From a virus (taxonomy: Duplodnaviria; Caudoviricetes), in IMG/VR virus record IMGVR_UViG_3300037851_000372, positions 1-62,105 of that record: 62,105 bases of DNA. The stretch is one strand, 5' to 3'. Positions 6,689-60,992 of the stretch are shown in pieces. Both the position numbers and the translations under genes were made by a program. Each line of letters begins with the position of its first letter. Position 1 is the stretch's first letter. The notes below the pieces were generated by a model that was given only the letters and a program-made list of their open reading frames with translations, did no database searches and was not told the origin of the DNA.

Positions 6689-9600
6689 CAGACGTAAGAA
6701 AAGTCTTGACTCGTGACGGAAAAGTCGTCCGCAATACTGAATATGCAGATGGTAGCGGTTGGAAGAAGATCGTCACCAAGACACGTTGCCTGCCTGAAAC
6801 GCTTACCATCACTCTATCTGGATTTGCTGACGCGTATCCAGACCGTGCAGAAATACCGCTGGCGTTCTCATCCTGTTTTGGGTCTGGCGCAGCCGGGAAC
6901 GTAGGCGCTCCGCCATCAGGTTCGATTCCATCCGCCGTCTCCAGTCCCGTTCTTACGGCGGCAGGCAGCGGCTACGCCGTCTTGGGCCGAGTAGAGCCGA
7001 ACATGCGGCTTACTGTAGTCGGTACTGGCGAGGGAGCAGAACTGACCCCCGTGCTGGTCGAGGACGAGGACTCGTGCGGTCGTCCGATATGGGTGATCGA
7101 TTCGGTTACCGTCGATCACCCTGGGAACGACTACGACGAATACACATACATCGACGTGCAAATCGGAAACTTTCCCGACTACAAAGCTGTCTCCGATGAT
7201 GTGTCTGGAACCGACGCAAGAATTCGAGTGGCCTGGTATGACAATGAAGGCGAGTGGGAAGTCGATGACATATTCATCCTTGCTGCGGGTTCCGATTACG
7301 AAGTAGGCGATACGTTCACGGTTGATACAGGGCTGACGCTCACCGTGGCCACTGTCGGCGGTGGAGGAGAAATCCTCTCGCTGACACCAAACCAGACCGA
7401 GACTTACCCTGTGCTGGAATCATTTGGATCGCCGTATCTGGTACCAGACCTTGGCAGATTCGAGCCGACGCTGACTCTTGCCACATTGGGCGGTGGTGCT
7501 GAACTGACCGTGAACATGGACCCGCTTTCTGTCGATCCGCCGTTGACGTGGACGATAGCCAGCGTGACTGTGGTGGACGGCGGGGATGATGAAGTTTTCT
7601 TTGACAACGACGCGATCTTCGTCGAGGAGAATCCAAATAACATAGGCGAGAGTACCGAGACTCTTTCTGTCCGAACGAACAGATCAGAGCCGTCGTATGA
7701 TTTCTCTGGCGGGAACAGCGATGCCATTTTCGATACGACGTACACCGAAGATGGCACCCCTCCGGACCAGGCATGGTACCTGGCTGACGTTACAGTGACG
7801 GATGGCGGTACAGGGTACTACGATATGGAGTATCTGTCAGTTTCGCCTAGCGGCTACAGAGACATCGATCTATACACGCCTGTCCTCGTCGTGAGAACAG
7901 AAAGAGCCGAACCGAGCGTACACCTAGAGCCTAGTTCTGTTTCGGGCAGCAGCGCGAGCATATCACTCACTCTCACTGCTGGCACAGACTTTGAGGGTCG
8001 CGACTCATGGACTGTCACCGGAACATCGATCGATAACGGCGGCAGTGGATACGAGGTCGGCGACACGTTTGTGGTCGTGACTAGCGACGGTGTCGAAATG
8101 ACAGCCGGATATGTCGAAGTCACTACAGTTGACGATGGTGAAATCACCGCCGTGAGTATCACGGACGCTGGTGAATACTATCGAGACACCGGCATCATTG
8201 AAGAGGTCGTCATCGAAAATCCCGGCCTCGGCTACCACGATGATGGATCTATCCACAGCGTGGTTGTGAGCCAGGGTGGCGAGTTCTGGCAGCAGTCAGA
8301 AGATTTGTCGAGTGTGATAATCACCGATCCCGGTGAGTCATACACGGAAGACCCAGCCGAAGATCCGATACTTGCTGACGTGACGATCACAGTAGATGGT
8401 GGAGAAGGCACAGGCGCAACATTCACAGCCGAGATAAATGACGATGTTGAGAGTCCTCAGTTTGGGCAGCTATCTGGAATCACTCTTGACAACGGCGGCA
8501 GTGGGTATAACGCGACTGTCTGGATAAAGCCTTGCTGTTCCCAGCGGTTTGACAGTGAGACGATCGTGGTGAAGCGTGGGCAGGGTTGCCACGTCGATTG
8601 CAGGCAAGCCACGCAAGATTACCATGAAAAGACGAGCCAGTGTTATGCGACTCATCGATCGTGTGGTTTGTCTTACTTCGCGACGGTCTGGCCATATGAC
8701 CACCGAAGAAACAGAGCAACCGAATACAGGGTTGAGTATCGGGGTCCGGATCTTCCGCCGCTGGTCCGCATAGAGCAGTCGCAGAATTGTGCTTCGAGTT
8801 CTGATGAATTCAATTGGCTCCCTATTGGCGCGACCTGCATCACGACAATGGAGTCTACGACTCTTGTTGGTGTCGGCGACCCACTAGAGTTTACCGCAGT
8901 GTCGGCAGGCGGCGCAACCGCTGTCGTTACCGAGGGTGGCGAATACGATATCGAAGCTGGTATTGCTGATCGTGCGACGGGGGCCAGCTCTTTCTATGTC
9001 ACGGCCTCCTGTTGTCCGTGCTGCGGCGGCGCTGCGGCAATGCCTGACGAGATAACTTGCCGAGTTACAGGAGTGGACAATCTCGGGAAGGTGTTTCGTT
9101 TTCGAGAAGAAGACGGCGGCCCAGATTTCGGTGACGATTTTTGGGACGAGGTCGAAGAGCTTGATCCAATACCGCCAATTCCAGAATCAGATATCGTTTT
9201 GACTCGTGACGGATGCCGCTACTCTGGCGATGCTACGATTTCGCTCGGAGAGATAACGCCTTGGGGTGGCACGCTGTCCGCCAAGATCACGATCACTCTC
9301 TCTGCCGAGCCTTGTCAGGGCACATATGGACAGAGCATTCAAATCTACTCACCAACCAATTATGACATTTCTGGTGAGTACGTGCTGCCCGCGTCTTTCA
9401 GCATCGATCACGAGTATGTGACATGCAATGAATGCGTGAAAGACAGATGTCGTGTCGTGTGGAGTATTGATATTGAATTCATTGCAGAGGGGGACTGGGG
9501 CAATTTTGGTTTAGACGAGCCACTTCCGTGGAATGGTATCAATATCTATACGCTCCCAACAGACATCAGTCGCATTTATACTGGGTGGTTTGCGGACCCA

Positions 9601-9822: not shown

Positions 9823-10223
9823 CCAACTGTGACTATGAACCATCGACTTTGACTTGTCGCGTGTGTGGGCATGTTGCAAAGCGGCTACCGACGTATCGCA
9901 AGTGTAAGCCTGTTCCGCCGCCCGCCTCGCGAACACCACCAAATGCAAATGGCCCTGGCTATTACGCCACGAAGCTGCTCTCATGGGTCGGCATTCGCTA
10001 TACGCCGGACTGTGAATGCGCATCTATGGCAGCCAGGATGGACTACATGGGCATTGATTGGTGCCTGTCTGATGTTGGCATGAGTGAGATTCTAGCGACT
10101 ATGAAGCGTGAGCATGAGAAGCGCAAGATGCTCATTCCGTGGTCAGATGCGGCTGCGATTGGATTGGTCAAGACGGCTTGTGAGCTTGCTGAGAGGGACG
10201 CTAAACGATGCAATTCCCATTGA
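9819..10223 (+). CDS. Cys-rich hypothetical protein (tail-associated)
   Basis: CRVCG and CECASMAARMD motifs; ATGA-coupled. Confidence 0.6.
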   Translation: MTNCDYEPSTLTCRVCGHVAKRLPTYRKCKPVPPPASRTPPNANGPGYYATKLLSWVGIRYTPDCECASMAARMDYMGIDWCLSDVGMSEILATMKREHEKRKMLIPWSDAAAIGLVKTACELAERDAKRCNSH

Positions 10224-10834
10224 CTCTGTTCTTCTCTTTTGCGGCAGTGCTCGTTTATGCCCAACCGACGCACGTTGTTCGCATTGTCGTCAGGCCTCCA
10301 GAAGGAAGCTCAGCATGGTCTATGGGTAGCGGCGTACTCGTAGACGAGCAAGTCGTCCTCACAAACTGGCATGTGGTACGCGACAACCCGTCGTCAGTAG
10401 AGGTTCGATTTGGCGGCAAGCGATCTGTAGTCGGCAAGTTTATCGCGGCTGATAACGACTGGGACGTCGCCATCATCGCCGTCGCGGCTGGGCATGGAGT
10501 GAAGCCAGTCCGCATTGCCAACCGCAATCCAGGCAGGGGCGACGGGCTCACGATTGCGGGCTACGGCCCAACGCGGACAGTCTACCGTGAGCAGTCCGGC
10601 CAGTTCATTCAGTACCTGTCACCTGCTGGACTCAGCACCTACGAACTCATAGAGCTGTCAGCAACCGCAAGGGATGGAGATAGTGGCGGACCCATCCTCA
10701 ACTCGAAAGGGGAGGTCGCAGGTATATTGTTCGGCACTGTGGACGGAACGACATCGGGTTGCGGTGCGACGCGGTTGCGGGAGATCCTGGGACGTCCTGC
10801 TGTGCGACTGAAGGGAATCAGATGCGACGAGTGA
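10208..10834 (+). CDS. Trypsin-like (S1) serine protease with signal peptide
   Basis: Catalytic motifs LTNWHV, DVA and GDSGGP; hydrophobic N-terminus. Confidence 0.9.
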   Translation: MQFPLTLFFSFAAVLVYAQPTHVVRIVVRPPEGSSAWSMGSGVLVDEQVVLTNWHVVRDNPSSVEVRFGGKRSVVGKFIAADNDWDVAIIAVAAGHGVKPVRIANRNPGRGDGLTIAGYGPTRTVYREQSGQFIQYLSPAGLSTYELIELSATARDGDSGGPILNSKGEVAGILFGTVDGTTSGCGATRLREILGRPAVRLKGIRCDE

Positions 10835-24389: not shown

Positions 24390-24851
24390 ATGACGATGCA
24401 GATCACACGCCGACTCGAGTTTGATTACGGACACCGTGTACTGAACCATGAAGGCAAGTGTAGGCACCTACACGGGCATCGCGGGGTGGTGGAGGTGGTT
24501 GCTGCCTCCCCGGACTTGGACTCGATCGGTCGTGTGATCGATTTCTCTGAAGTGAAGCGGATCGTCGGCGGTTGGATTGACGAGGAGCTTGATCACAACA
24601 TGCTGCTCCACCCCGACGACCCGCTTGCCACGCGCCACTCCGCTGTGGAGCTGGTTGGAAGGCTCCCGTTCATTATGCCCCGTCACTTGTCCAATCCGAC
24701 AGCCGAGAACCTTGCTCAGCTGGTGTACGAGAAGGCGAACGAACTGCTCGCCAGCCGTGGAATCAAAGTCGTTCGGGTACGTTTCTATGAGACTCCAAAC
24801 GGCTGGTCGGACTACCCCGGCCTTCCCTTGACTCGAAGTGAGGTTTCCTGA
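24390..24851 (+). CDS. queD: 6-carboxytetrahydropterin synthase
   Basis: FDYGHR, CRHLHGH, DFSEVK, LDH, PTAENLA and YETP motifs. Confidence 0.95.
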   Translation: MTMQITRRLEFDYGHRVLNHEGKCRHLHGHRGVVEVVAASPDLDSIGRVIDFSEVKRIVGGWIDEELDHNMLLHPDDPLATRHSAVELVGRLPFIMPRHLSNPTAENLAQLVYEKANELLASRGIKVVRVRFYETPNGWSDYPGLPLTRSEVS

Positions 24852-26251
24852 TGTGTGGACTTGCTGGTGGGTACGTGACTCCATTGCTGTCCATGGACTT
24901 GCTGGTGGACGTGTTGCAAGCCACGGAGAACCGGGGTCAGGACAGTTTCGGATTCTACTGGACCAACATCGACAGGACGAAGACGCAGGTCACACGCTCG
25001 CTCACGCCGCCGTGGCAACGGACGAGTGACTTTGCAACCATGCTGCCGTACGACGAGCCGTTTTTGTTCATTGCTCATGCACGGGCGGAGCCAACGACGG
25101 AGCGGGTGGACAAGAAGAGGATCCAGGACATACAACCGTTCGAGTACGGCGGGTGGATGGTCGGCCACAACGGGACGATCGCAAACGACAAAGCGCTCTG
25201 TCAGCAGCACGGTTGGCATCCGGACACGAACATCGATAGCGTCGTACTGCCGTACCTGTTCTCTGAGCTTGGCGACGTGGGCGGGTTTGACCAGATCACT
25301 GGCTCCTATGCGTTGCTGGCAATAGGTCCAGGACGCGGGGTGCTGCAATTCGCAGTCAACTATCGACCGCTCTACTATGTGAGGCATCTGCCGTCTGGTT
25401 CCATCTTCATTGTCAGCGACCCGACTCCGTTCGTTGGGCATGGTGTGGGTCGCATGGGTGAGTGGCAAGTGGAAGCGATACCGGCATACCACAAAGGATT
25501 CGTCCAGCCCGGCCTCAGCCCGCCCGTGTCGCTGACGCCCATCGGCACGTTCAAGGGTCAGCAGTCTAATGAGGCGCTGGTCGTGTGTAGCGGTGGACTT
25601 GATTCGGTGGTCGTGGCGGCCGAGATGGCGAAGGATGGTCATGACGTTACGCTGCTCCACTACGAGTACGGGTGCCGTGCTACTGCTCGCGAGAAGAGAG
25701 CCATCCGCGACATCTGTGCTCGCATGGGGTGGAAGTCGATCGTGGTTCCGCTTGGAGACCTCTTCACTACCATCATCGGGGCAAGCCCGTTGGTGGGGGC
25801 GGGCACAGTCAACCTGGAGGGTGATGGGGAGGCAGGCGCAGAGTTTGCTCACGAGTGGGTCCCAGCTCGGAACCTTGTCATGCTGTCCATCGCTGTTGCG
25901 ATTGCGGAGGCGAAGGGCATCCCGAAGCTGGCCTTGGGCATCAACATCGAAGAGGCAGGGGCGTACCCGGACAACGAAGCCGAGTTTGTAAGACGCCTCA
26001 ACCGGGTGCTCCCGTTCGCAGTGAAGGCTGACCGTAGCGTCGAGATACTGATGCCGGTGGCCAACAAAGTGAAACACGAGATCGTTCTTATGGGGCTGAT
26101 GAATGGAGCTCCCTTGGACCTCACTTGGTCCTGCTACGAAGGTGGCGACAAGCATTGCGGCAAGTGTGGGCCCTGCTACATGCGCCGCGTCGCGTTCTCG
26201 ATGAACGGTGTGAGTGACCCTTGCTTTGAACCCGGGAGTGAAGAGGAATGA
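24851..26251 (+). CDS. gat-queC: Class II glutamine amidotransferase-QueC fusion (Gat-QueC)
   Basis: N-terminal MCG, RGQD, HARA and HNGTIAN GAT motifs; QueC SGGLDS, VPARN, YPD and SCY..HCGKCGPC motifs. Confidence 0.93.
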   Translation: MCGLAGGYVTPLLSMDLLVDVLQATENRGQDSFGFYWTNIDRTKTQVTRSLTPPWQRTSDFATMLPYDEPFLFIAHARAEPTTERVDKKRIQDIQPFEYGGWMVGHNGTIANDKALCQQHGWHPDTNIDSVVLPYLFSELGDVGGFDQITGSYALLAIGPGRGVLQFAVNYRPLYYVRHLPSGSIFIVSDPTPFVGHGVGRMGEWQVEAIPAYHKGFVQPGLSPPVSLTPIGTFKGQQSNEALVVCSGGLDSVVVAAEMAKDGHDVTLLHYEYGCRATAREKRAIRDICARMGWKSIVVPLGDLFTTIIGASPLVGAGTVNLEGDGEAGAEFAHEWVPARNLVMLSIAVAIAEAKGIPKLALGINIEEAGAYPDNEAEFVRRLNRVLPFAVKADRSVEILMPVANKVKHEIVLMGLMNGAPLDLTWSCYEGGDKHCGKCGPCYMRRVAFSMNGVSDPCFEPGSEEE

Positions 26252-26943
26252 CAGGGATCGTCAACGTCCAGCCGCAAGAAGGCCTGGACCAGCGGGATGA
26301 TGGAGCGGTGGAGGTCCATTCGATATGGGACACGATGCAAGGGGAGGGGCCGTACGCTGGCACTCCAGCCACCTTCGTTCGACTGACGGGGTGCAACCTA
26401 GCCTGCCGTCTGTGCGACACGGAGTACACGGGCACTCGCGATCTGCTCATTCCGAACAAGGTGCTGGAGCGTGTCAACCAGCTGCCCCGTCGCAAGCTGG
26501 TGGTGATTACAGGAGGCGAGCCGTTTCGCCAGAACATCATCCCGCTCGTAGCGTGTCTGCTTCGCTCTGGTCGTGACGTTCAGATAGAGACCAACGGAAC
26601 TGTCTTCCTGTCCATGTCGGATGTGATGTCTGCGGTGGTAGTGTGCTCACCCAAGACTCCAAGAATCAACGACCAGATGTGGAGGAACATCAGCTGCCTG
26701 AAGTATGTTGTCCAGGACGGGCAAGTGGATCCCGAGGACGGGTTGCCACTGTCGTCTGTTGGTCCACAGTACGGGAGGCCAGCAAGGCCGCCTGCAAACT
26801 GGAAGGGCGAGATCTATGTTCAGCCGCTTGATGAGCAGGATGCGGAACGCAACGAAGCTCACCTCAAGCAGGCAGTGGCATCGTGTATGAAGTTCGGATA
26901 CCGTCTGTGTCTACAGACCCATAAGATGGTGGGGTTGCCTTGA
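26248..26943 (+). CDS. queE: 7-carboxy-7-deazaguanine synthase (radical SAM)
   Basis: [28 protein letters not shown] and QTHK motifs. Confidence 0.95.
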
Positions 26944-27521
26944 GCGATATCACTTTGAAGACGAGGGAGAACTACGCGAAGGGCGCGGTTCGTGAGCTGC
27001 TGAAGTTCATTGGAGAGGACCCGGATCGGGAAGGCTTGCTTGAGACGCCCCATCGCGTCGTCAAGAGCTATGCTGACCTCTTTTCCGGCTATCAGTACGA
27101 CACGGACGACAAGATCGCTGCTGTGCTGAAGGTGTTCGAAGACGGCGCGTGTGACGAGATGGTCCTGCTCAAGGACATCGAGTTTGTTTCGTTCTGCGAG
27201 CATCACCTCCTTCCGTTCATTGGCAAGGCACACATCGCCTACCTGCCAAACGGGAAGGTAGTGGGCATCTCGAAGCTCGCTCGGATCCTGGATGTGTACG
27301 CCCGCCGCTTGCAGATCCAGGAGCGACTCACTCAGCAAGTGACGTCTGCCCTGGACAAGTACCTCAACCCGCTCGGGTCCGCTTGCGTGGTTGAAGCTCA
27401 CCACCAGTGTATGAGCTGCCGTGGAGTCATGAAGCAGAACTCAGTGATGGTGACGTCGTCACTCACCGGCCAGTTCCGCGAGCCCGAAGTGCGGTCCGAG
27501 TTCTTCCACCTGATTCGGTAA
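26940..27521 (+). CDS. folE: GTP cyclohydrolase I
   Basis: [30 protein letters not shown] and HQCMSCRG motifs. Confidence 0.97.
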
Positions 27522-27527
27522 TCGCTC

Positions 27528-28559
27528 ATGACCAAGATCATGCTCGACTCGGGCGCCTTCACGGTGTGGACTAAGGGTGCTCGTATAGACCTGGACTCGT
27601 ATATCGAGTTCTGCCTGGCTCACCCCCAGGTGGACGTCTACATCAACTTGGACGTCATACCAGGCAGCCCGAAGGTGAGCAAGCCGCCCACGCCCCAGGA
27701 GGTGGACGACTGTGCGAAGGAGACGTGGAAGAACTACCTCAAGATGATACGACGCTTGCCCATCGAGAAAGTGATGGGGGTGTACCACCAAGGCGAGTCC
27801 ATGAAGTGGCTTGAGCGGTACCTTGATTTCAAGGCGCCGTATGTGGGGCTAGGCAACGTGGCGATGGCAATGGAAGAGAACAGGCTTGCCTGGTTTCGCA
27901 GCGTCCGCTCCATGCTGATGGGGAGCGACGGCAAGGCAGTCACCAAGCTACATGGGCTCGGGGTGACGTCGTTTCGCAGTATGAAAGCGATGCCCTGGTA
28001 CTCTGTTGACAGCGCCTCTTGGATTCGTTCAGCAAGCTACGGCACTGTCTACGTCCCGATGATGCGGAAGGGCGAGCCTCAATACGATGTCTCCCCGTTC
28101 CTGCTCAACGTGAGTCCCAAGTCGCCAAGTGTGGACGACTGGGGCAAGCATATCACCACGCTCTCCCCTACCCTTCGCAAGCAGGTTCTCGACTACTTTG
28201 CCACGCTCAAGATGCCCCTTGGATCGTTTGAGGAGGTGGCAGTGCCGAAGGGGTACAAGAGGCAGAGCGGGGAGTATTGGACGGACAAGACGAAGACGAA
28301 GATCTACCGCACAGTCGTCATGGGCTTGTCAACCGATCACCACCGCCGCTTCTGGACGAACGCTCGCTTCATCCGACGTGCGAATGAGGTGCTGCCCATC
28401 GTTGACATCTACTTCGCAGGTGCTCCAGGGTCGACGACGGTAAAGGTGGAGGACAGTTTGGGTAGGCGGCTGTTCTCCTACCACGACGTCTCCAAGGAGT
28501 CGACGAAGTCGTATCGCACGTTCTGTCGCCACATTGAACTGAAGGGAGTCGCAGCATGA
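27528..28559 (+). CDS. dpdA: DpdA-like deazaguanine DNA transglycosylase (TGT fold)
   Basis: LDSGAF, LDVI, VYHQG, LHGLG and SVDSASW TGT-like motifs at the end of the que cluster. Confidence 0.8.
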   Translation: MTKIMLDSGAFTVWTKGARIDLDSYIEFCLAHPQVDVYINLDVIPGSPKVSKPPTPQEVDDCAKETWKNYLKMIRRLPIEKVMGVYHQGESMKWLERYLDFKAPYVGLGNVAMAMEENRLAWFRSVRSMLMGSDGKAVTKLHGLGVTSFRSMKAMPWYSVDSASWIRSASYGTVYVPMMRKGEPQYDVSPFLLNVSPKSPSVDDWGKHITTLSPTLRKQVLDYFATLKMPLGSFEEVAVPKGYKRQSGEYWTDKTKTKIYRTVVMGLSTDHHRRFWTNARFIRRANEVLPIVDIYFAGAPGSTTVKVEDSLGRRLFSYHDVSKESTKSYRTFCRHIELKGVAA

Positions 28560-40973: not shown

Positions 40974-41206
40974 CAGTCAAGCAGATCAACGGCGAGTGGT
41001 GGATCGTGGACAAGGTGTACGGGATACCGGATCACGGTCCGTACAAGACCAAGCAGGCGGCAGAGGAAGGCTGTGCTGGGCTCAATCGCACAATCAAGTC
41101 GCACCCAACCATCTTCAAGTGTGTTGAGTGTGCGGGGACGCAAGAGGAGGAGTACCTGCCAGGCAAGTTTCGTCTCTGTCGTGTGTGCAAGGGAGAGCGG
41201 AAATGA
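40970..41206 (+). CDS. Hypothetical protein with CxxC...CxxC
   Basis: GTGA-coupled; CVECAG and CRVCKG. Confidence 0.55.
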   Translation: MTVKQINGEWWIVDKVYGIPDHGPYKTKQAAEEGCAGLNRTIKSHPTIFKCVECAGTQEEEYLPGKFRLCRVCKGERK

Positions 41207-41778
41207 ACTACCGCAGTAGGCTCGATTCCCTTGCGGCTGACCTACGCTCAGCGACGAAGGCGGTGCGGACGGAGCAAGCTGAGCTGACGGCTTGTGATGA
41301 CGAGCTTGCCAACGCGGAAGAGGCAAGGGAGATCATACAGACCGTCGCTCAGACCATGCAGCAAGAGATTCATGGCCGCGTCTCCATGCTGGTGAGCAGG
41401 TGCCTGGAGTCCGTGTTCGACGACCCCTATGAGTTCGAGATTCGCTTTGAGCGGAAGCGGGGCCGTACGGAGGCCCTGCTGGTGTTCAAGCGTCGTGGGC
41501 TGGTGCTGACGGATCCGTTGCGGGAGGTGGGCGGGGGCGTGATTGACGTGGCCTCCTTCGCGTTGCGGCTTGCCAGCATACTGCTGACACGTCCCGCCGC
41601 CAGACGCTTGCTGGTGCTGGATGAGCCGTTTCAGCGGATCCGCGGTGTGGACAACCGGAAGCGAGTACGCGACCTGCTCGTGTCGTTGGCAGACGACTTT
41701 GGGTTCCAGATTGTGCTCAACATCGACATCGACGCTTACCCCGAATTCGCGTTGGGCAAGCTGGTGGAACTTTCTTGA
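41203..41778 (+). CDS. SbcC/Rad50-like ATPase, C-terminal half
   Basis: Coiled coil then signature-like VGGG and Walker B LLVLDEPF. Confidence 0.85.
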   Translation: MNYRSRLDSLAADLRSATKAVRTEQAELTACDDELANAEEAREIIQTVAQTMQQEIHGRVSMLVSRCLESVFDDPYEFEIRFERKRGRTEALLVFKRRGLVLTDPLREVGGGVIDVASFALRLASILLTRPAARRLLVLDEPFQRIRGVDNRKRVRDLLVSLADDFGFQIVLNIDIDAYPEFALGKLVELS

Positions 41779-41804
41779 CTTCGTATATTGAGGTCGGAGA
41801 GCAC

Positions 41805-42143
41805 ATGATGAGCAACGCGCAGCACAATCTGAAGGTCGGCGACCGCTTGGCCTTCCACACGAACAATTCGATGACGGGACACCACTGGCAGATCTATCCG
41901 ATCACCAAGATCACTCCGTCGGGACGCATCAAGTGTGGGTCATACGAGCTCAACCCCGACCTCACCATTCGAACTCAGGACATATGGCTGCGAACGACGT
42001 GCCACTTGCTGACGGACAACATTCGCAGGGAGTGGCGAAGGGAGAGGCTGGTGAGTAGGATGCGGACGACAAAGTGGGCTGAGCTAACTGATGATCAGCT
42101 GTTTCGTGTGTCTGCGATTGTCAATGAGCCGAAAGGCGAGTAG
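41805..42143 (+). CDS. Hypothetical protein
   Basis: RBS GGAG; LKVGD...ITKITPSG beta-barrel-like start. Confidence 0.6.
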   Translation: MMSNAQHNLKVGDRLAFHTNNSMTGHHWQIYPITKITPSGRIKCGSYELNPDLTIRTQDIWLRTTCHLLTDNIRREWRRERLVSRMRTTKWAELTDDQLFRVSAIVNEPKGE

Positions 42144-42144
42144 C

Positions 42145-42687
42145 ATGGTAAATGGCACGTACGAGATCATCCTCTGCGACCCACCATGGGACTATAAAGG
42201 CCAGACTCAACACGCTGGCGCAAAATCCTCTTCGACGGGTGGTGCTGCTGTTCATTATCCGACGATGACAGTGGCCGATATGATCAAGACGATCGATGTT
42301 CTTTCTTTTGCCGCTGATGACTGTCTCTTGTTCATGTGGGCGACGTGGCCACATCTCGACCAGGCTATCACACTTGGGCATGGCTGGGGATTCAGATATG
42401 TCCATACGCCGTTTGTGTGGGACAAGGTTCGACTGAATCCTGGCTACTACACCATGACGCAGACAGAGCCAGTTTTGTGTTTCAAGCGAGGAAAGATCCC
42501 AAGGCCACGGGGCGCTCGCAATGTCAAGCAACTGGTGAGGCGACCACGGGAGAAACACAGTCAGAAGCCAGTAGAAGTGAATCGACGGATTGAATTGATG
42601 TTCCCGACTCAGAGGAAGCTGGAGATGTTCGCTCGTCGTCGCGTCGAAGGTTGGGATGCGTGGGGTAATGAGATTGAAGTTCAGTGA
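42145..42687 (+). CDS. MT-A70-family N6-adenine methyltransferase
   Basis: DPPW, HYPTM, LFMWAT, HSQKP, LEMFAR and WGNE motifs. Confidence 0.92.
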   Translation: MVNGTYEIILCDPPWDYKGQTQHAGAKSSSTGGAAVHYPTMTVADMIKTIDVLSFAADDCLLFMWATWPHLDQAITLGHGWGFRYVHTPFVWDKVRLNPGYYTMTQTEPVLCFKRGKIPRPRGARNVKQLVRRPREKHSQKPVEVNRRIELMFPTQRKLEMFARRRVEGWDAWGNEIEVQ

Positions 42688-42694
42688 GGCGTGC

Positions 42695-43135
42695 ATGATA
42701 GACAACACGATCACTATTCCTCGCGACCTCGCAGAACGTGTCCTCGCGCACTTGAATGGCACGCGAGACATGGGCCAGCCGGGGGAGGACTGGAAGAGCC
42801 CGGAGATCTGCGGCGACATCGCGGCTCTTGAGACACTATTGAATCAAAAGGGATACTGCCGGATCGTTTGCGTCGATGACAGCGGGAGCGGAGGCGCTGG
42901 AGGCACGGCCTCACCGCCGCTGATCTTGGGCGAGTCGGCGTGGAATCCTACCAGCGAGACTCCAGAACCGTATGTCGATGTGATCGGATGGGATGCGGAA
43001 CGCGGATCGACGTCGTGGTTTTGGTCTGCATCGATGGCAAGATGGTGCCTGACCGGTGACGAGCGTGCGCCGGGGGACGGACCGGCGTTGCCGCCGTCGC
43101 TTTGGAGGCGATTCCCGGAGCCATCGTGCCCGTGA
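42695..43135 (+). CDS. Hypothetical two-domain protein
   Basis: RBS GAGG; Gly-rich linker; C-terminal W..P-rich domain. Confidence 0.55.
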   Translation: MIDNTITIPRDLAERVLAHLNGTRDMGQPGEDWKSPEICGDIAALETLLNQKGYCRIVCVDDSGSGGAGGTASPPLILGESAWNPTSETPEPYVDVIGWDAERGSTSWFWSASMARWCLTGDERAPGDGPALPPSLWRRFPEPSCP

Positions 43136-43149
43136 TGTCTTCCCTGTCG

Positions 43150-43236
43150 GAGAACGGCTGCCTTCAGCAGATCGCAGCCAAAGGACGTACCATATGAGTG
43201 AGCGTCGTCGCGATTCTGCTGCAAGGCTTTGTTCTC
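43150..43236 (-). mobile_element. Integron attC-like recombination site, copy 1
   Basis: Minus strand reads GAGAAC-AAAGCCTTGCAGCAGAATCGC...GCGATCTGCTGAAGGCAGCC-GTTCTC: AAC/GTT cores, unpaired spacer, two extrahelical bases. Confidence 0.75.
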
Positions 43237-43257
43237 TCTATTCTTTGAGGTTTTGAC

Positions 43258-43530
43258 ATGCACTACCCGTCGGGTTCACTATCGGCGACAACTCCAGGAT
43301 TTTCCCGAAAGGGCCGAGACTCTTCGGACTTCGGGATGTACGTTTCAAACTGGAACGGAGAGCCCGTAGAGGTGTGGGAAGACGCGGACGGGGACGTTGG
43401 GGTCATGGATTCTCGTGGGTACTCCATCGTCATTCACCGAAAATCAGCTCACGTACTCATGGAGTGGCTTGCGAAGCACGAAAGGCGTAGAGTCAACGAG
43501 GAAATCAGGCGAGTCAGGAAACATGACTAG
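43258..43530 (+). CDS. Cassette-borne hypothetical protein
   Basis: RBS GAGG; 90 aa ORF between the two attC-like sites. Confidence 0.55.
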   Translation: MHYPSGSLSATTPGFSRKGRDSSDFGMYVSNWNGEPVEVWEDADGDVGVMDSRGYSIVIHRKSAHVLMEWLAKHERRRVNEEIRRVRKHD

Positions 43531-43701
43531 GCTGCTGGCCACTAACGCCACTGCTGAGGCCGTATCAATTCGGCGTCATCACTGCCAGGACTCGCTTGTG
43601 GGGATGCGACGTGAGGCCCGACTCGTAACCCGCGAGAGAGGCGACACCGTGGCGGCTATACGGCCACGCCGGACTCCGGTAACCGGCTTTTCATTCCGTG
43701 A

Positions 43702-43789
43702 GAGAACGGCTGCCTTCAGCAGATCGCAGCCAAAGGACTCTGCTATGAGAAAAGACGACGACGCGATTCTGCTGCAAGGCTTTGTTCTC
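43702..43789 (-). mobile_element. Integron attC-like recombination site, copy 2
   Basis: Arms identical to copy 1, different central loop, 552 bp downstream. Confidence 0.75.
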
Positions 43790-43896
43790 CGTCTTTTTTT
43801 GAGAGGCACACATGACTGACTCGCCACGGCAGAACATCTACATGGACTCCGGCCCGGACGTGGAGGGGGGGCGCGGGACTCCTGCCCCGTGACATC

Positions 43897-44217
43897 GTGA
43901 GCGACCGCGACCCAAGAATCTTCTCGCCGCATGAGCGGGAACGCAAGGCAGACGAAGCCAACGGGGTACAGGTTGGTGGCAACCACTACAAACTCAAGAA
44001 GATCGAGCCGTGGGACTACATCGTCGCCAATGGTATTGGGTTTCTTGACGGGAATGCTATCAAGTACCTGACCCGCTGGAGGAACAAAGGAGGTGTCGAG
44101 GACCTCAAGAAAGCGATTCACTACATCGAGAAGCTGATTGAGGTGGAGACCCAGTGGCATGACAAGGAGGGCGGGAATGCGAGCGCAAGGCAAGGCACGG
44201 TGGATGATCCAGGCTGA
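43897..44217 (+). CDS. DUF3310-like protein
   Basis: QVGGNHY..IEPWDYI..GNAIKYLTRW..KGGVEDLKKA motif; the true start may be 43812 across a G7 tract. Confidence 0.8.
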   Translation: MSDRDPRIFSPHERERKADEANGVQVGGNHYKLKKIEPWDYIVANGIGFLDGNAIKYLTRWRNKGGVEDLKKAIHYIEKLIEVETQWHDKEGGNASARQGTVDDPG

Positions 44218-44653
44218 CATCGACTCGGTGCTAGAGATCGACCGCGTGTGTCATGTGGATCCGTGGACCAAGAAAACGCTCAAGGAACACCTGCGACGTC
44301 GCGAGTGCATTGGCATGGTCTTTGAGAGTGAGGACGAGCAGATACTGGGCTATGCGGTCTACGAGACCGCGAAGACCAGTATCACAGTCCTCCGTCTTGC
44401 TGTGCGGTGGTCCATGCACAGGAGGGGAGTGGGCACTGCAATCGTCAACCACATCGTGTCCCGCCTCACGCAGAGAACACGTTCACGCATCTCCATTACG
44501 GTGCCGGAGACCAACTTGGAGTGCCAGCTCTTTTTGAGGTCGCTTGACTTCAAGGCAGTCCGCGTGGTCAGGAACGTGTATGACAGCCATGTGGGACCGG
44601 ACGCTTACGAGTTCTTGTATGTGTTGCCGAAGACAGCGGACGTGAACGGGTAG
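44177..44653 (+). CDS. RimI-like GNAT acetyltransferase
   Basis: RWMIQADIDSVLEID, CIGMV, RRGVG, ETN..CQLF and DAY motifs. Confidence 0.85.
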   Translation: MRAQGKARWMIQADIDSVLEIDRVCHVDPWTKKTLKEHLRRRECIGMVFESEDEQILGYAVYETAKTSITVLRLAVRWSMHRRGVGTAIVNHIVSRLTQRTRSRISITVPETNLECQLFLRSLDFKAVRVVRNVYDSHVGPDAYEFLYVLPKTADVNG

Positions 44654-44654
44654 T

Positions 44655-44810
44655 ATGTCCGGACACACCGTATGTCCAGTGTGTGGGGCAGCCTGCGTAG
44701 ACATCCGTGCGAAGCTGGTTTGCCCACGTTGCCACACTGTTGTTGAGTCGTGTTGCGAGGGCGGTTGCACTGTCAAAGAGGTGAGCGATGATCGCAGTCA
44801 AGAACGCTGA
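44655..44810 (+). CDS. 51-aa CPxCG zinc-finger microprotein
   Basis: Manual translation MSGHTVCPVCGAACVDIRAKLVCPRCHTVVESCCEGG...; absent from the ORF track. Confidence 0.65.
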   Translation: MSGHTVCPVCGAACVDIRAKLVCPRCHTVVESCCEGGCTVKEVSDDRSQER

Positions 44811-45057
44811 AGCCCCGAAGCGATTCACTCAGCGAGTGGCTGAGTGGTTTGCGAAGGCGGTGCTGTGGGCTGAGGTTGACATGGACTCGCTTGCCAACCT
44901 GATACAGGAGCGGGACGCCCTTCGCAAACAGAACGAGGTACTGACAGAGGACAACGCAAGGCTCCGGACACGATTGGCAAGAGAGGTGCGACGCGGGGAC
45001 GAGTTCGCCCGCCGCCTCATGCGGGCACGTGATGCCCTAGATGGGAAGGTAGCATGA
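44788..45057 (+). CDS. Hypothetical coiled-coil protein
   Basis: RBS GAGGTG. Confidence 0.6.
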   Translation: MIAVKNAEAPKRFTQRVAEWFAKAVLWAEVDMDSLANLIQERDALRKQNEVLTEDNARLRTRLAREVRRGDEFARRLMRARDALDGKVA

Positions 45058-45740
45058 CAGAGAGGGCACAGATCGCGGCACAGGCCTTGGCGGGGTGGCT
45101 GGCGTCATATCCTTCGGAGAGCGTCTTTACGCCGGCTATAGCCGAGGCAGTGGCCTGCAACGCGGTGGCGTTCGCCGATGCTCTCTTGGTAGAGCTGGCT
45201 AGGCCGAAGGTTCCTGGGGCTGCGGGCGACGTAGTAGCGGATGCTGCGACTGCCCGTGCGGGGGTGCAAGCTACCGGGTGTGGGTACTGTGGCGAGCAGC
45301 ATGGGAAATATTGCCCGACGAAGATCCATCACGACATCCTGATGATGATGAATGAGCTCGACAAGGAGATCTGTCTGCCCGACCACAACGACGGGGGACG
45401 GGGCATCAGCCACCACTTGCAAGCCGTATGGCGGTTTCGAGATCGGGTGAACACCTACTTCCAGCATGGGCCTGTGATGGTAGGGAATGCGAAGGTTGAC
45501 GACGACGGTATCACAGCCTCCGTCAATGCGAAGGGCAAGATAGACGTGGTGCATGTCACAATGGCGGAGGGCGGTGCGATCATCAGCAACGCTGGCAAGT
45601 CGTATGAGGTTCACTCTGTTGCGGAGTCAATCAGCAGGTGCTGCGGTGTACCCGAGTCCGCGCTGGACGAGTACGTTGATCCGGAGATGGTGGACGCCGC
45701 TAGGATGGAGAAGCTCGCTCGCGGGAGCAAACAAGCGTGA
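45054..45740 (+). CDS. Hypothetical protein
   Basis: ATGA-coupled; AAQALAG..A..AV..ADALL phage motif at the N-terminus. Confidence 0.6.
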   Translation: MTERAQIAAQALAGWLASYPSESVFTPAIAEAVACNAVAFADALLVELARPKVPGAAGDVVADAATARAGVQATGCGYCGEQHGKYCPTKIHHDILMMMNELDKEICLPDHNDGGRGISHHLQAVWRFRDRVNTYFQHGPVMVGNAKVDDDGITASVNAKGKIDVVHVTMAEGGAIISNAGKSYEVHSVAESISRCCGVPESALDEYVDPEMVDAARMEKLARGSKQA

Positions 45741-46469
45741 TCTACGTCAACGGAGTGGTGCTGACGGAGCAGCAGAAGGTCCGACTCCACCGCAAGATGC
45801 GGAAAGGCGACATGGAGGCCAAGGACATGCTGGCCCGCTCTGTGCTGCCCTGGGCGATCAAGTGTGCAACGCGACGACGTGTCAACGGCCTTGATATGTC
45901 GGACCTTATAGAGCTGGCGTTCATGGCTACAGCTCAAGCTCTGAATAGGTGGGATCCGAAACGTGGTAAGTTGACTACAACGGTGGCATGGGCTGTCAAG
46001 TCGGAGATACATGAGGCACGTTGTAGTCTCTCATTCGTTGCAAAGGTACCGCGTCGAAAAGAGTCTGGTGATACAAGAAACGACGAAAGTCTTCTCAAGC
46101 TCTTGAACCCGTACAGCATCCATGGACACGGCAGCCATGTTCATGAACATGGCTGCCGTGTCCATGGATGCAGCACAGCAAGAGATGGAGGCAAGTGATG
46201 TTTGGGTACGCGAGCACCGTTGGAAGCTTCGGTGGGTACTGGATCAGATGAAGCCCAGGACGCGAAGCATACTCGAGCGACGTTACGCCGGTAGGACCCT
46301 TCAAGAAATCGCAGACGAGGAAGGGCTGTCCAAAGAACGTGTTCGCCAGCTACAGGTCAAGGCAGAGAAAGAGATGGAGGCGCTGCTGCCCATGGTTCCA
46401 GAGTGGCCAGACGCAGAGAAGGATCGCACACCAGGTAGAATTCGTGGGTCGTGGAGTGAGGCAGAGTAG
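45737..46469 (+). pseudogene. Sigma70-family factor split into two frames
   Basis: Regions 1.2/2 (GDMEAKDML, DLIELA, WDPKRGKLTT) in 45737..46198; region 4 (RTLQEIADEEGLSKERVRQ) in 46122..46469; break at the palindrome. Confidence 0.75.
46116..46171. repeat. 56-bp perfect palindrome
   Basis: GCATCCATGGACACGGCAGCCATGTTCA|TGAACATGGCTGCCGTGTCCATGGATGC, no loop and no mismatch. Confidence 0.95.
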
Positions 46470-59704: not shown

Positions 59705-60084
59705 TGGCCTCGTCACCAGAATTTGCTGTTGTGCCTCGTATCGGTGTGGCGAATGTAGCCACTGCCGATTCCTCGTATACCGCGCCGTCAAGTGTCGGCA
59801 CTGTGCTGACGGCTGGAGCAAGCGGAACTCGAATCGAGGAGATTGTTGTCAAATGTGCGGCAACCTCGGCCGCCGCTCGCGTTCGGATATTTTTGTACGA
59901 CGGTTCCACGTATCACCTATTTGACGAGTATGCGGTCACGGCGGCGACGGCTTCCTCGACGGTATCGACATTCCGGCTGGCGACCGCGTACGCCAACCTC
60001 GTGCTCCCGTCGGGCTGGTCGTTACGCGCCACCACGTCCGTTTCACAATCGACGAACGTAATCGCGATCGGAGCCGATTTGTGA
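59704..60084 (+). CDS. Fibre-associated structural protein
   Basis: TAATG-coupled, beta-rich, ends IGADL. Confidence 0.6.
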   Translation: MASSPEFAVVPRIGVANVATADSSYTAPSSVGTVLTAGASGTRIEEIVVKCAATSAAARVRIFLYDGSTYHLFDEYAVTAATASSTVSTFRLATAYANLVLPSGWSLRATTSVSQSTNVIAIGADL

Positions 60085-60992
60085 ACCGCGGAATCTACCC
60101 ACTACCGGCCCGAGCATTGGGTTCCTGCCCTCGCGGCCGGCAGGGGGTATCTACCGCGCGACGGCTTGGTAAAGAGGTGTACCACGAGGAGGCGGTCGGC
60201 TGGGCGGATCGCATTCGGTCCGCAGGCGGCATGGCGTTACCCGATCGAGTTGTCAAGGTCGTGTCGGCATTGTGCCGCCGTATGGATGCGACAGGGCTGC
60301 GCCAGTATTTTTATCGCCTCAATCTCCTGATCGGCCTTGATCTCGTGTCATCCCTGACACCGCTATACCTCGGCCCGGTCTACGGTGGCACGACCTACGG
60401 CGGCGCGACCGATACCAACGTGGCGTCCAACTTCACGGCTGCTGATTTTTCGCTGGCGGCTGGCGGCAAAGGGAACGGCACAAGCAAATCCCTGAAGACA
60501 GAATTGCCAACGAACGTAAGTGGAATCGGTGATGCACAGTATTTGCATTTTGGGACTGGTGTGCTCGCGACAGACACGAGAACCCCTGGTTTGTATGCCT
60601 CGCTCGGAACATATCGCGGGGGGTGGCACGATCTGACGCTGTGCTTATGCCGAACAGGCGCGCGACCGCATGTCTCATTCGGCGAGTCCGATACGACGAC
60701 CGCCGCAGGTGTAATGGCCGACACCGTGGCGATCCGGGCCGGCAACCATATGTGCGCGTGGCCACATGCTTATTACAATGGTGTCCAGTATGGCGTTTCC
60801 GCCACGTTAGGAGACAGTCTGGCGTCAGGTGATTCATTTTTCGTATTTTCAACGGCGATCAATAACAGTCCTAGTTCATGGACTGACGCGAGGCTTGGTT
60901 GGTATAGCATCGGCCTGACGATGCCAGCCTCTGCTGTCTACGAGTTTGAGCGCATTATTCGAGCGTTCTATTTTGCGATTGGGAGAGCCTGA
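60081..60992 (+). CDS. Fibre-associated protein, possible lectin-like domain
   Basis: RLNL...L.P, GNGTSKSLKT and YSIG motifs; located between fibre genes. Confidence 0.55.
   Translation: MNRGIYPLPARALGSCPRGRQGVSTARRLGKEVYHEEAVGWADRIRSAGGMALPDRVVKVVSALCRRMDATGLRQYFYRLNLLIGLDLVSSLTPLYLGPVYGGTTYGGATDTNVASNFTAADFSLAAGGKGNGTSKSLKTELPTNVSGIGDAQYLHFGTGVLATDTRTPGLYASLGTYRGGWHDLTLCLCRTGARPHVSFGESDTTTAAGVMADTVAIRAGNHMCAWPHAYYNGVQYGVSATLGDSLASGDSFFVFSTAINNSPSSWTDARLGWYSIGLTMPASAVYEFERIIRAFYFAIGRA

Follow-up and report, generated by a model that had tools for sequence, protein, structure and literature searches.

The window analyzed here is the whole 62,105-bp stretch of IMG/VR virus record IMGVR_UViG_3300037851_000372 (positions 1 to 62,105), a tailed phage from a freshwater sample, in which two closely similar hairpin elements, c1 and c2, bound a stretch of DNA with a small gene. 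We consider it likely that the two elements are genuine attC sites of a chromosomal-integron family of the Pirellulales and that, with the single mobile 552-bp cassette that they delimit, they form a small cluster of attC sites lacking an integron integrase (CALIN) in a tailed phage that has no integrase of its own, exchanges cassettes through the integron integrase (IntI) of its host and has adapted the attC loops as translation starts. This reading is supported by the anatomy of the sites, by their membership in a family that forms arrays beside intI genes, by the chimeric-box rule that those arrays follow, by the parts of the cassettes that travel together and by loops of a kind specific to phages.

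The left arms of c1 and c2 (43150-43186 and 43702-43738) agree at 37 of 37 bases and are followed, after central loops of 23-24 bases that differ, by 27-base right arms (43210-43236 and 43763-43789) that are the same in both copies. Measured start to start, the left arms are 552 bp apart and the right arms 553 bp. Each arm occurs exactly twice in the window, and 100 dinucleotide-preserving shuffles gave no match. A covariance model (R1), which was built from 15 viral and 9 bacterial copies of the element, detects both sites (Table 1) and, at E values up to 10, finds no third copy in the window, only reverse-strand echoes of the two. The original prediction, made from the letters of this DNA, had described two elements with equal arms and unlike loops at these places, and they are present as described.

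Each strand of either site can be folded into a long imperfect hairpin. As DNA, the plus strand reaches −21.8 kcal/mol for c1 (z −4.1) and −17.9 kcal/mol for c2 (z −2.2). The 3′ arm of the plus strand reads GCGAT[T]CTGCTG[C]AAGGC-TTT-GTTCTCT, in which the bracketed bases bulge: a C at position 16 and a T at position 23, counted from the R″ end, which are 6 bp apart (7 bp if the other of two adjacent Ts bulges) and lie on the arm opposite AAC. In published attC sites, the extrahelical bases of the bottom strand are likewise borne by the arm that faces AAC, with the L″ base at position 16, the last base at 23 or 24, and a 6-bp stem from the first of them to the last (PMC5027507; papers are cited here from excerpts of their text). 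The spacer between the R and L boxes has GGCT on the 5′ arm opposite TTT on the 3′ arm, with 3 and 2 bases unpaired in the DNA fold. The AAC triplet, described as the sole element conserved among all attC sites (PMC5027507), is in register in all 13 viral and 37 bacterial sites of the family, and GTT is in register in all but one, which has ATT. AAC and GTT cores, a mismatched spacer and two extrahelical bases had been put forward as the mark of attC anatomy in this DNA, and the fold contains each of them. Divergent bacterial members of the family have other arm sequences and keep the pairing and both bulges; at locus L026, the inner stem is altered on both sides and the bulged T is kept. RNAalifold found no double changes in alignment A1, because the members of A1 had been gathered by exact arms.

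The outermost bases of the sites follow a pattern of their own. As read, the flanks of c1 are CGGAGAAC...GTTCTCTC and those of c2 are GAGAGAAC...GTTCTCCG, and they are cross-complementary, as had been predicted: the right 7-bp box of c1 is complementary to the left box of c2, as the right box of c2 is to the left box of c1, with one further base pair on each side. Within the window, the cross-pairing amounts to two bases per pair beyond the common GAGAAC/GTTCTC, and the chance of a full box match is ∼0.08-0.2 by shuffling, so that taken by itself it is weak evidence. It becomes strong through the arrays found elsewhere.

In integron arrays, attC sites are chimeric, the last six bases of the recombined box being derived from the neighboring cassette. 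A cassette carries complementary boxes at its two ends, and the two boxes of a single site need not match. We scored this on the four variable bases of the 7-bp boxes. In viral arrays, the facing right and left boxes of neighboring sites show full complementarity in 8 of 9 pairs, compared with 0 of 13 for the two boxes of one site; the corresponding counts in bacterial arrays are 22 of 30 and 0 of 37, and in neither set do any of 10,000 shuffles reach the count. An independent metagenome set, whose elements were detected by nhmmer (23 of 235 hits were dropped as lying at an edge or out of register), gives 46 of 68 adjacent pairs and 18 of 174 own pairs among the matches listed, with a mean of 5.1 and a maximum of 14 of 68 in shuffles. 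Where both loops of a pair are of the phage type, 6 of 10 pairs match, again among the matches listed. The rule spans ∼500 bp and holds for many different box sequences; it is our chief ground for speaking of IntI-type cassettes and not of simple repeats. Ten different complementary box pairs occur in arrays that either are viral or have loops with a Shine-Dalgarno (SD)-like motif and an ATG. The bacterial sample, 37 sites with 17 distinct left boxes, lacks 6 of these 10 left boxes (AGAG, TGCT, TGAG, CCCT, TCCT, and AGCT). The original prediction had called the crosswise boxes of the window a recombination scar; the boxes are real, but they are the normal chimeric R boxes of any cassette array and not a scar. 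A transposable origin, in which a miniature inverted-repeat transposable element (MITE)-like sequence landed twice in intergenic DNA, fits the terminal inverted repeats, the small size, and the intergenic positions of the two copies, but we give it next to no credence: target-site duplications are absent, there is no transposase among the scanned open reading frames (ORFs) of the window, and both the neighbor-box rule, which already contradicts a MITE, and the intI-adjoining arrays are foreign to such elements.

Table 1. Coordinates of the attC sites, the cassette and the adjoining features in the 62,105-bp window
Feature	Position	Strand	Basis or detail
attC site c1 (bottom strand)	43149-43237	+	model R1, 97 bits, E 2.5e-25
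c1 R′ box GGAGAAC	43149-43155	+	predicted cut A43154/C43155
c1 R″ box GTTCTCT	43231-43237	+	box anatomy
c1 bulged bases	C43222; T43214 or T43215	+	DNA fold
attC site c2 (bottom strand)	43701-43790	+	model R1, 99.3 bits, E 5.1e-26
c2 R′ box AGAGAAC	43701-43707	+	predicted cut A43706/C43707
c2 R″ box GTTCTCC	43784-43790	+	box anatomy
c2 bulged bases	C43775; T43767 or T43768	+	DNA fold
Excisable cassette, 552 bp	43155-43706	− (conventional top strand)	box positions, linkage of loop and right box
c1 leader ORF, 20 codons	43194-43256	+	AGGA at 43182-43185, 8 nt before ATG
Cassette gene, 90 aa	43258-43530	+	no known family
Structured 3′ part of cassette, 170 bases	43531-43700	+	90% identical to G003
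c2 leader ORF, 24 codons	43745-43819	+	starts in c2 loop
DUF3310 backbone gene served by c2	43812-44217	+	PF11753, E 3.2e-11

The same family of sites is found in other viruses and beside integron integrases. Besides the window, 6 IMG/VR contigs contain an exact left-arm 20-mer, the largest of their arrays having four copies, with ∼470-1600 bp spacing, and a search with an 18-mer of the right arm adds variants as well as half sites with the right arm alone. A two-arm pattern is present in 9 bacterial contigs, 7 of which are assigned to Pirellulales, Pirellula or Bythopirellula; the other two are labeled "bacterium" and as a short contig in a Cyanobium bin. Matches to the integron integrase model TIGR02249 are above its cut-off of 265 bits in 4 of 5 genomes tested (full length, 388-466 bits), and the arrays adjoin matches of 403-466 bits in genomes G005, G008, and G009. 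With model R1, arrays of 2-10 full-length sites, related and more divergent, appear beside the intI genes of Pirellulales. There are 12 hits after intI at locus L064 (10 of which were used in the box counts), 10 hits before a partial intI at L062 (9 of them on the array strand), 8 hits at L068, 4 each at L061 and L063, and 3 before intI at L065. The metagenome scan adds at least 130 further loci with the element. Candidate hosts with both intI and matching attC sites were called for by the original prediction, and these Pirellulales genomes, with their TIGR02249 matches and R1 arrays, answer to that description. Pirellulales are the likely hosts of the phage. Because the related elements form cassette arrays beside intI, the attC identity of c1 and c2 is better supported than it would be by a model hit.

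Some details of these arrays are worth recording in their own right. At L062:8087-10594 (G005:C6), the sites at 8087, 9650, and 10077 are alike, as are those at 9224 and 10504; two cassettes alternate there, which is a tandem duplication. The cassette that owns the phage-like attC site at L061:10971-11059 (G008) has, by eye, a HicA/HicB-like toxin-antitoxin pair at ∼300-830 nt from R″, and the pair lies on the usual cassette strand. At L029 and L032, around position 301, the right arm and a leader-type ATG are kept and the left arm is replaced by unrelated sequence; these half sites look like cassettes fixed by the loss of half an attC site. In viral contig G003, a truncated left arm is fused to the middle of the window's cassette gene.

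The strand of the sites follows from several kinds of evidence. Published work places the cut of the attC bottom strand where A meets C in the AAC of R′ (PMC5027507). With the minus strand of the window taken as the top strand, intI lies upstream of the array and co-directional with it in 4 of 5 Pirellulales loci; an "inverted integrase" layout of this kind has been published for the Treponema group (PMC4889954), and the likeness is one of these bacterial loci and not of the phage. L065 has the classical divergent layout of intI and array, and under the opposite strand assignment, 0 of the 5 loci fit any known layout. The longest ORF of bacterial cassettes is opposite to the strand of the window gene in 23 of 31 cases, and the longest ORF in viral arrays is on the strand of the window gene in 8 of 9. 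These counts bear out the claim that the genes here read antisense to the usual cassette orientation. Pairs of elements that share only downstream DNA (n = 15) have the same right box in 15 cases, an identical loop in 10 and the same left box in 2; for pairs that share only upstream DNA (n = 5), the counts are 0, 0, and 3. It is thus with the DNA downstream that loop and right box move, which puts the crossover at or near the left box; the natural comparisons do not fix it to the base, as a crossover anywhere in the left arm would give the same linkage. The arm that carries the bulges, the layout of arrays and intI, the ORF strand in bacteria, and the linkage agree that the minus strand is the attC top strand with the crossover at the left box, in line with the original prediction, and that the plus strand of the window is the attC bottom strand. 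Our first reading had taken the plus strand as the top strand, from the box rule holding in the plus direction; the rule is orientation-neutral, and the four observations just named overturned that reading. Because the coding strand of the phage is the attC bottom strand, phage cassettes are antisense to the bacterial convention, with the attC site upstream of the gene. The boxes, and the fact that loop and right box stay linked to what lies downstream, also uphold the predicted bounds of the 552-bp cassette (Table 1). It is made up of the c1 body, the cargo, and six bases from the start of the c2 left box, and its ends, GTTCTCT and AGAGAA/C, are complementary.

Comparison with other viral arrays indicates that such cassettes have moved. 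At the DNA level, the window shares with them only the sites and the 3′ part of the cassette. Positions 43411-43786 are 90% identical to a piece in viral contigs G003 and G004, which have no terminase match to the window and two distant proteins in common with it; past the shared piece, the left box and its flank are the same and the loops and right boxes are different. Contigs G001 and G004, two near-identical temperate-type contigs, are an occupied and an unoccupied member of the same system: their flanks are 100% identical, and they differ by one 526-bp cassette (L070:9180-10010 versus L074:7700-8000). In eight pairs of homologous cassettes, with 92-100% identity and about five of them independent, the two members stand next to different neighbors. 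The outer boxes of the window match at 4 of 4 bases plus one more, and it is the only viral array of four with such a match; it is plausible that the cassette entered a solo attC site, but the chance of such a full match is ∼0.08-0.2.

The main rival to exchange by IntI is exchange by homology alone, in which the attC-derived sites now act as portable homology linkers and phage recombinases swap DNA between the arms during co-infection, without IntI. Phages that are otherwise unrelated have identical arms, a UvsX-like recombinase and exonucleases are among the products of the window, and Erf-, RecE-, or exonuclease VIII-like proteins are encoded by other phages (Erf-like or RecE-like in G002 and G004). 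A crossover in the left arm would also leave the linkage pattern that an AAC cut leaves. In addition, the single loop of G004 matches neither loop of G001 despite the 100% identical flanks, a replacement that the AAC cut alone cannot give. Because of this difference, loops must also be exchanged otherwise than by the AAC cut, most simply by homologous recombination or gene conversion between identical arms. Homology linkers, however, offer no reason for right and left boxes ∼500 bp apart to stay complementary, as they do in the 10 box pairs that include 6 left boxes unseen in the bacterial sample. The arm-based collection of phage copies required exact arms, and part of the invariance seen in the arms is owed to that selection; hits of the covariance model include phage-type sites with other arms. 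We think it unlikely that homology alone accounts for the arrays, and the two modes of exchange are not exclusive of one another.

Several points, the G004 loop and the selection of exact arms among them, weigh against the reading of c1 and c2 as attC sites served by a Pirellulales IntI. The window boxes GGAGAAC and AGAGAAC fall outside RYYYAAC and deviate from the RYYYAAC/GTTRRRY consensus, position 16 is a C where the usual base is G, and the unpaired spacer is 3-4 nt in place of the usual 5-6 nt. We note that family members such as GCCTAAC/GTTAGGC conform to the consensus and that the deviating box GGAGAAC is also present in the intI-adjoining arrays of L061, L064, and L065. Exceptions to the box rule are 1 of the 9 phage pairs and, among metagenome pairs in which both loops have an SD-like motif and ATG, 4 of 10. 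The assignment of the host takes the attC family as its one basis. The 159-aa protein encoded upstream of the cassette has no relative in IMG/VR or the metagenome contigs, and a 22-mer across the downstream junction has 0 exact matches in IMG/VR. DUF3310, tried as a locus marker for relatives, is too widespread to help. Neither an empty-site allele nor a circle was found for the window locus among the relatives searched or in run X1, where the phage is represented by short contigs that break in the arms; this run (Logan contigs), the only one with the phage, contains no joints and says nothing either way on excision.

The contig breaks in run X1 could also be taken to mean that the cassette was threaded in through the repeated arms during assembly and that the true genome has a single self-complementary site. 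The left flank joined to c2 would indeed give a perfectly self-complementary site, and the summed contig depth over 43147-43223 is ∼230 compared with ∼11.5 for the flanks, a depth from which we conclude that the freshwater sample holds many other copies of this attC family. We nevertheless give an assembly artifact very little credence. The depth of the cassette piece (12.7) matches that of the left flank (11.5) and is near that of the right flank (8.8), and, as the two loops are unlike, any read that exceeds the 37-nt arm in length resolves the path.

The loops of the sites distinguish phages from bacteria. An SD-like 4-mer stands 3-11 nt before an ATG in the loop of 14 of 17 viral sites, versus 1 of 39 bacterial sites, where a single conserved loop type with no start signals predominates. 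Among 33 distinct elements with an SD-like motif and ATG, 3 run off the locus, 6 open ORFs of 78-269 aa, and 24 open leaders of 13-37 codons; the ORFs begun at a loop ATG include an N6_N4-type methyltransferase in G001 and, by eye, a DUF4326-like protein in G003. An ORF of at least 50 aa starts within −10 to +40 nt of the leader stop for 15 of the 24 leaders, and within −8 to +2 for 9, distances that stand without a chance control and to that extent count against the case for leaders. Within the window, a single base separates the end of the c1 leader from the ATG of the cassette gene, and the stop codon of the c2 leader (TGA, 43817-43819) overlaps the ORF starting at ATG 43812. The conservation of the leaders is uninformative on the peptide, because the conserved right arm dictates it. 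The sole bacterial loop of this type, L068:4522-4610 (G009:C141), sits in a Pirellulales array and has GGAG followed by an ATG in the leader frame; this is a hint that cassettes pass between the pools of phages and bacteria.

These loops also raise the question of whether the hairpins are primarily expression elements at the RNA level, that is, a start module, a processing site, or a terminator, whose likeness to attC is incidental. Start signals in most viral loops and leaders that end at or near the next start would suit such elements, the plus strand as RNA folds at −42 and −35 kcal/mol for the two sites, and a T-rich stretch follows the c2 hairpin. We judge this explanation very improbable. 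Related sites form bacterial arrays beside intI, where the start signals are all but missing, and an RNA element would keep the base of its own stem paired, yet none of the 13 viral sites has fully complementary boxes of its own. A simple terminator scan flags neither site, and searches of Rfam gave nothing meaningful for the whole window at gathering thresholds or for 43100-43900 at E values up to 10. A role in expression is better seen as an added function of attC sites, and it forms part of our preferred reading. Attributing the hairpins to attC, we suggest that phage copies would have adapted the unpaired loop to hold an SD-like motif and an ATG. Each cassette would therefore bring its own translation start, in some cases as a short leader ORF that stops at the start codon following it and in others as the opening 14-15 codons of the protein that the cassette encodes. 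Ribosomes that start in the loop would unwind the hairpin's 3′ arm and give access to the downstream start, and in this way the leader ORF may aid expression, with transcription supplied by read-through from the co-directional phage genes. In known integrons, the short ORF of attI1 (ORF-11) aids translation and attC hairpins hinder ribosomes. Within integrons, the translation of cassettes has been shown to control expression downstream (Carvalho et al. 2024, PMC11511950). The likeness to these translation aids is that a short upstream ORF, or its translation, helps a cassette without good signals of its own; unlike them, the start signal here is inside the attC loop and moves with the cassette.

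A complete integron comprises intI, attI and a cassette promoter, and the window has no intI; two attC sites 552 bp apart without an intI match in the record make it a CALIN. The absence of IntI from the window had been part of the original prediction and is confirmed by the lack of any PF00589, TIGR02249, or phrog_1 match in the 62,105 bp, although the record is ∼71% complete and the remaining ∼29% could hold intI. None of 5 viral records has an IntI above the cut-off, and of 169 loci from phages and metagenomes only 1 contains IntI by tblastn. In G004, a tyrosine integrase gene (L074:6430-7353) lies 487 nt upstream of the array, with a phrog_1 match of 52.9 bits and no NCBIfam match, which is unlike IntI; in the same place, G001 has a 135-aa C-terminal integrase fragment (L016:1378-1785), the sole PF00589 match there. 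The arrays of G004 and G001 may lie beside attP, or the G004 integrase may act on the sites. A phage-encoded recombinase for the sites was considered and rejected: G001 has only the fragment, the G004 enzyme is not an IntI, and no recombinase is common to the attC-bearing phages. Because no viral IntI and no such common recombinase were found, host IntI acting in trans would be the simplest source, and we infer that it is the enzyme at work in the phage and that exchange may be ongoing.

On the reading that we favor, the plus strand, when single-stranded during infection, would fold into the attC hairpin, and host IntI would cut it where A meets C in the AAC of the left box. The strand would then be exchanged with another folded attC site, on an excised circular cassette or a co-infecting phage, and whole cassettes would thereby be inserted or removed. 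Folding and recombination of the bottom strand are reported to be favored on the lagging-strand template (PMC5371416). The large scanned ORFs of the window are all on the plus strand and the GC skew is positive throughout; if this skew reflects the direction of replication, the plus strand would be the lagging-strand template.

The cargo of the cassette is a gene of no known family and a structured region. Compared with its homologue in G003, the 90-aa ORF has 14 of 17 substitutions at third codon positions, and on this ground we take it to be a real coding sequence. Its product has no Pfam family at E values up to 0.01, and the only match among proteins of 49-158 residues is to this same protein of the window in a shortened version. 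Further 3′, the structured part (Table 1) differs from G003 by a 1-nt indel and shows two compensatory pairs, with a consensus fold of −65.9 kcal/mol; it is probably noncoding and may be an RNA or DNA structure. No Rfam match comes near any gathering score, and its relatives in IMG/VR are G003 and G004 only, too few for a covariation test. An ORF at 43523-43819 was rejected as a real gene on account of the 1-nt indel and the compensatory stem changes relative to G003.

The record itself is that of a phage. It is linear, and hallmark genes flank the cassette on both sides: a scan with PHROGs identified the large terminase, a tape measure protein, and tail proteins, together with a replication set (DNA polymerase, helicases, primase, clamp loader, the UvsX-like recombinase, and the exonucleases) and queuosine-type genes. 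CheckV is the source of the completeness estimate given above. The genes adjoining the cassette encode, according to Pfam, an MT-A70 methyltransferase, the 159-aa orphan, DUF3310, a GNAT acetyltransferase, and a sigma-70 region-2 protein. ARAGORN found no tRNA, and megablast of 41000-46000 gave no GenBank phage match. The DUF3310 frame is broken in a run of seven Gs (43865-43871) of the assembly and is open back to the run; contigs of run X1 contain minor +G and +GG variants of it (depth 4.5 of 44), and the +GG variant would restore a single ORF from ATG 43812. The frameshift may be either an assembly or sequencing error or a real homopolymer length variation. A QueC-like/amidotransferase gene and a queuine tRNA-ribosyltransferase-like gene lie at 24851-28559, which suggests 7-deazaguanine modification of the phage DNA, alongside the MT-A70 methyltransferase at 42091-42687. 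The only two proteins common to the window phage and G002, G003, and G004 (29-37% identity) are encoded at 10208-10834 and 60081-60992; homologues of the former match the "protease" family phrog_9683, and the two may reflect a common host.

Cassettes at attC sites in phages are a known kind, because phage CALINs were reported by Qi et al. 2023 (PMC9892861). That study described 17 attC clusters without integrase in phages, including virulent ones, and found that five of six phage attC sites tested recombine with IntI1. The window resembles those clusters in having at least two attC sites with cassettes and no intI, in the proposal that phages draw on the integron system, and in its association with methyltransferases: MT-A70 upstream in the window and N6_N4 and others in the cassettes of G001 and G003. 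The published clusters were obtained with IntegronFinder on GenBank phages of other hosts and tested with IntI1, and the excerpts of the paper mention no matching attC family in the host and no start signal in the loops; here, the sites match an integron family of the putative host, the cargo is antisense, and the loops hold an SD-like motif and ATG. Planctomycetes are listed among the phyla with integrons (Cury et al. 2016, PMC4889954). Like sedentary chromosomal integrons such as the repeats of Vibrio cholerae, the arrays have one attC family with conserved arms and chimeric R boxes, cassettes of ∼350-1600 bp, and, by eye, toxin-antitoxin-like cargo in the bacterial arrays. Unlike them, the window has no intI, no attI (on a consensus scan only), and a single cassette, and it is in a virus. 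Fused or fixed cassettes with partial loss of attC (PMC4670013) can be likened to G003, L029, and L032 among the related contigs and not to the window. Judged from titles and the beginnings of abstracts, the papers returned by searches of the literature described no attC loop turned into a translation start; nor did we find, in them or in the excerpts of PMC9892861, phage sites that belong to the chromosomal integrons of the putative hosts or a demonstration of the box rule in phage arrays.

Integrons are usually seen as bacterial, and attC clusters have been reported from phages only of late and in few genomes. The present case adds a link between phage and host, in that one attC family occurs in the phage and beside the intI genes of its candidate hosts; it adds sequence evidence that cassettes moved between otherwise unrelated phages by the integron rule; and it adds a phage-specific re-use of a recombination site as a translation start. 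If host IntI acts on infecting phage DNA, this would provide a site-specific route to mosaicism that could move accessory genes, methyltransferases among them, between viruses, and attC families could predict the hosts of uncultured phages. More tentatively, we raise the possibility that phages of Pirellulales keep their own pool of antisense cassettes, in which the loop has evolved into a portable ribosome-binding site, start, and leader that would let any cassette landing in any co-directional phage genome be translated straight away, and that unrelated lytic-type and temperate phages trade them by way of host IntI during infection. Such a pool would touch the bacterial one, because a phage-type loop sits in a bacterial array at L068. 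If this is true, the integron is a gene-exchange network for viruses as well as a device for bacterial adaptation.

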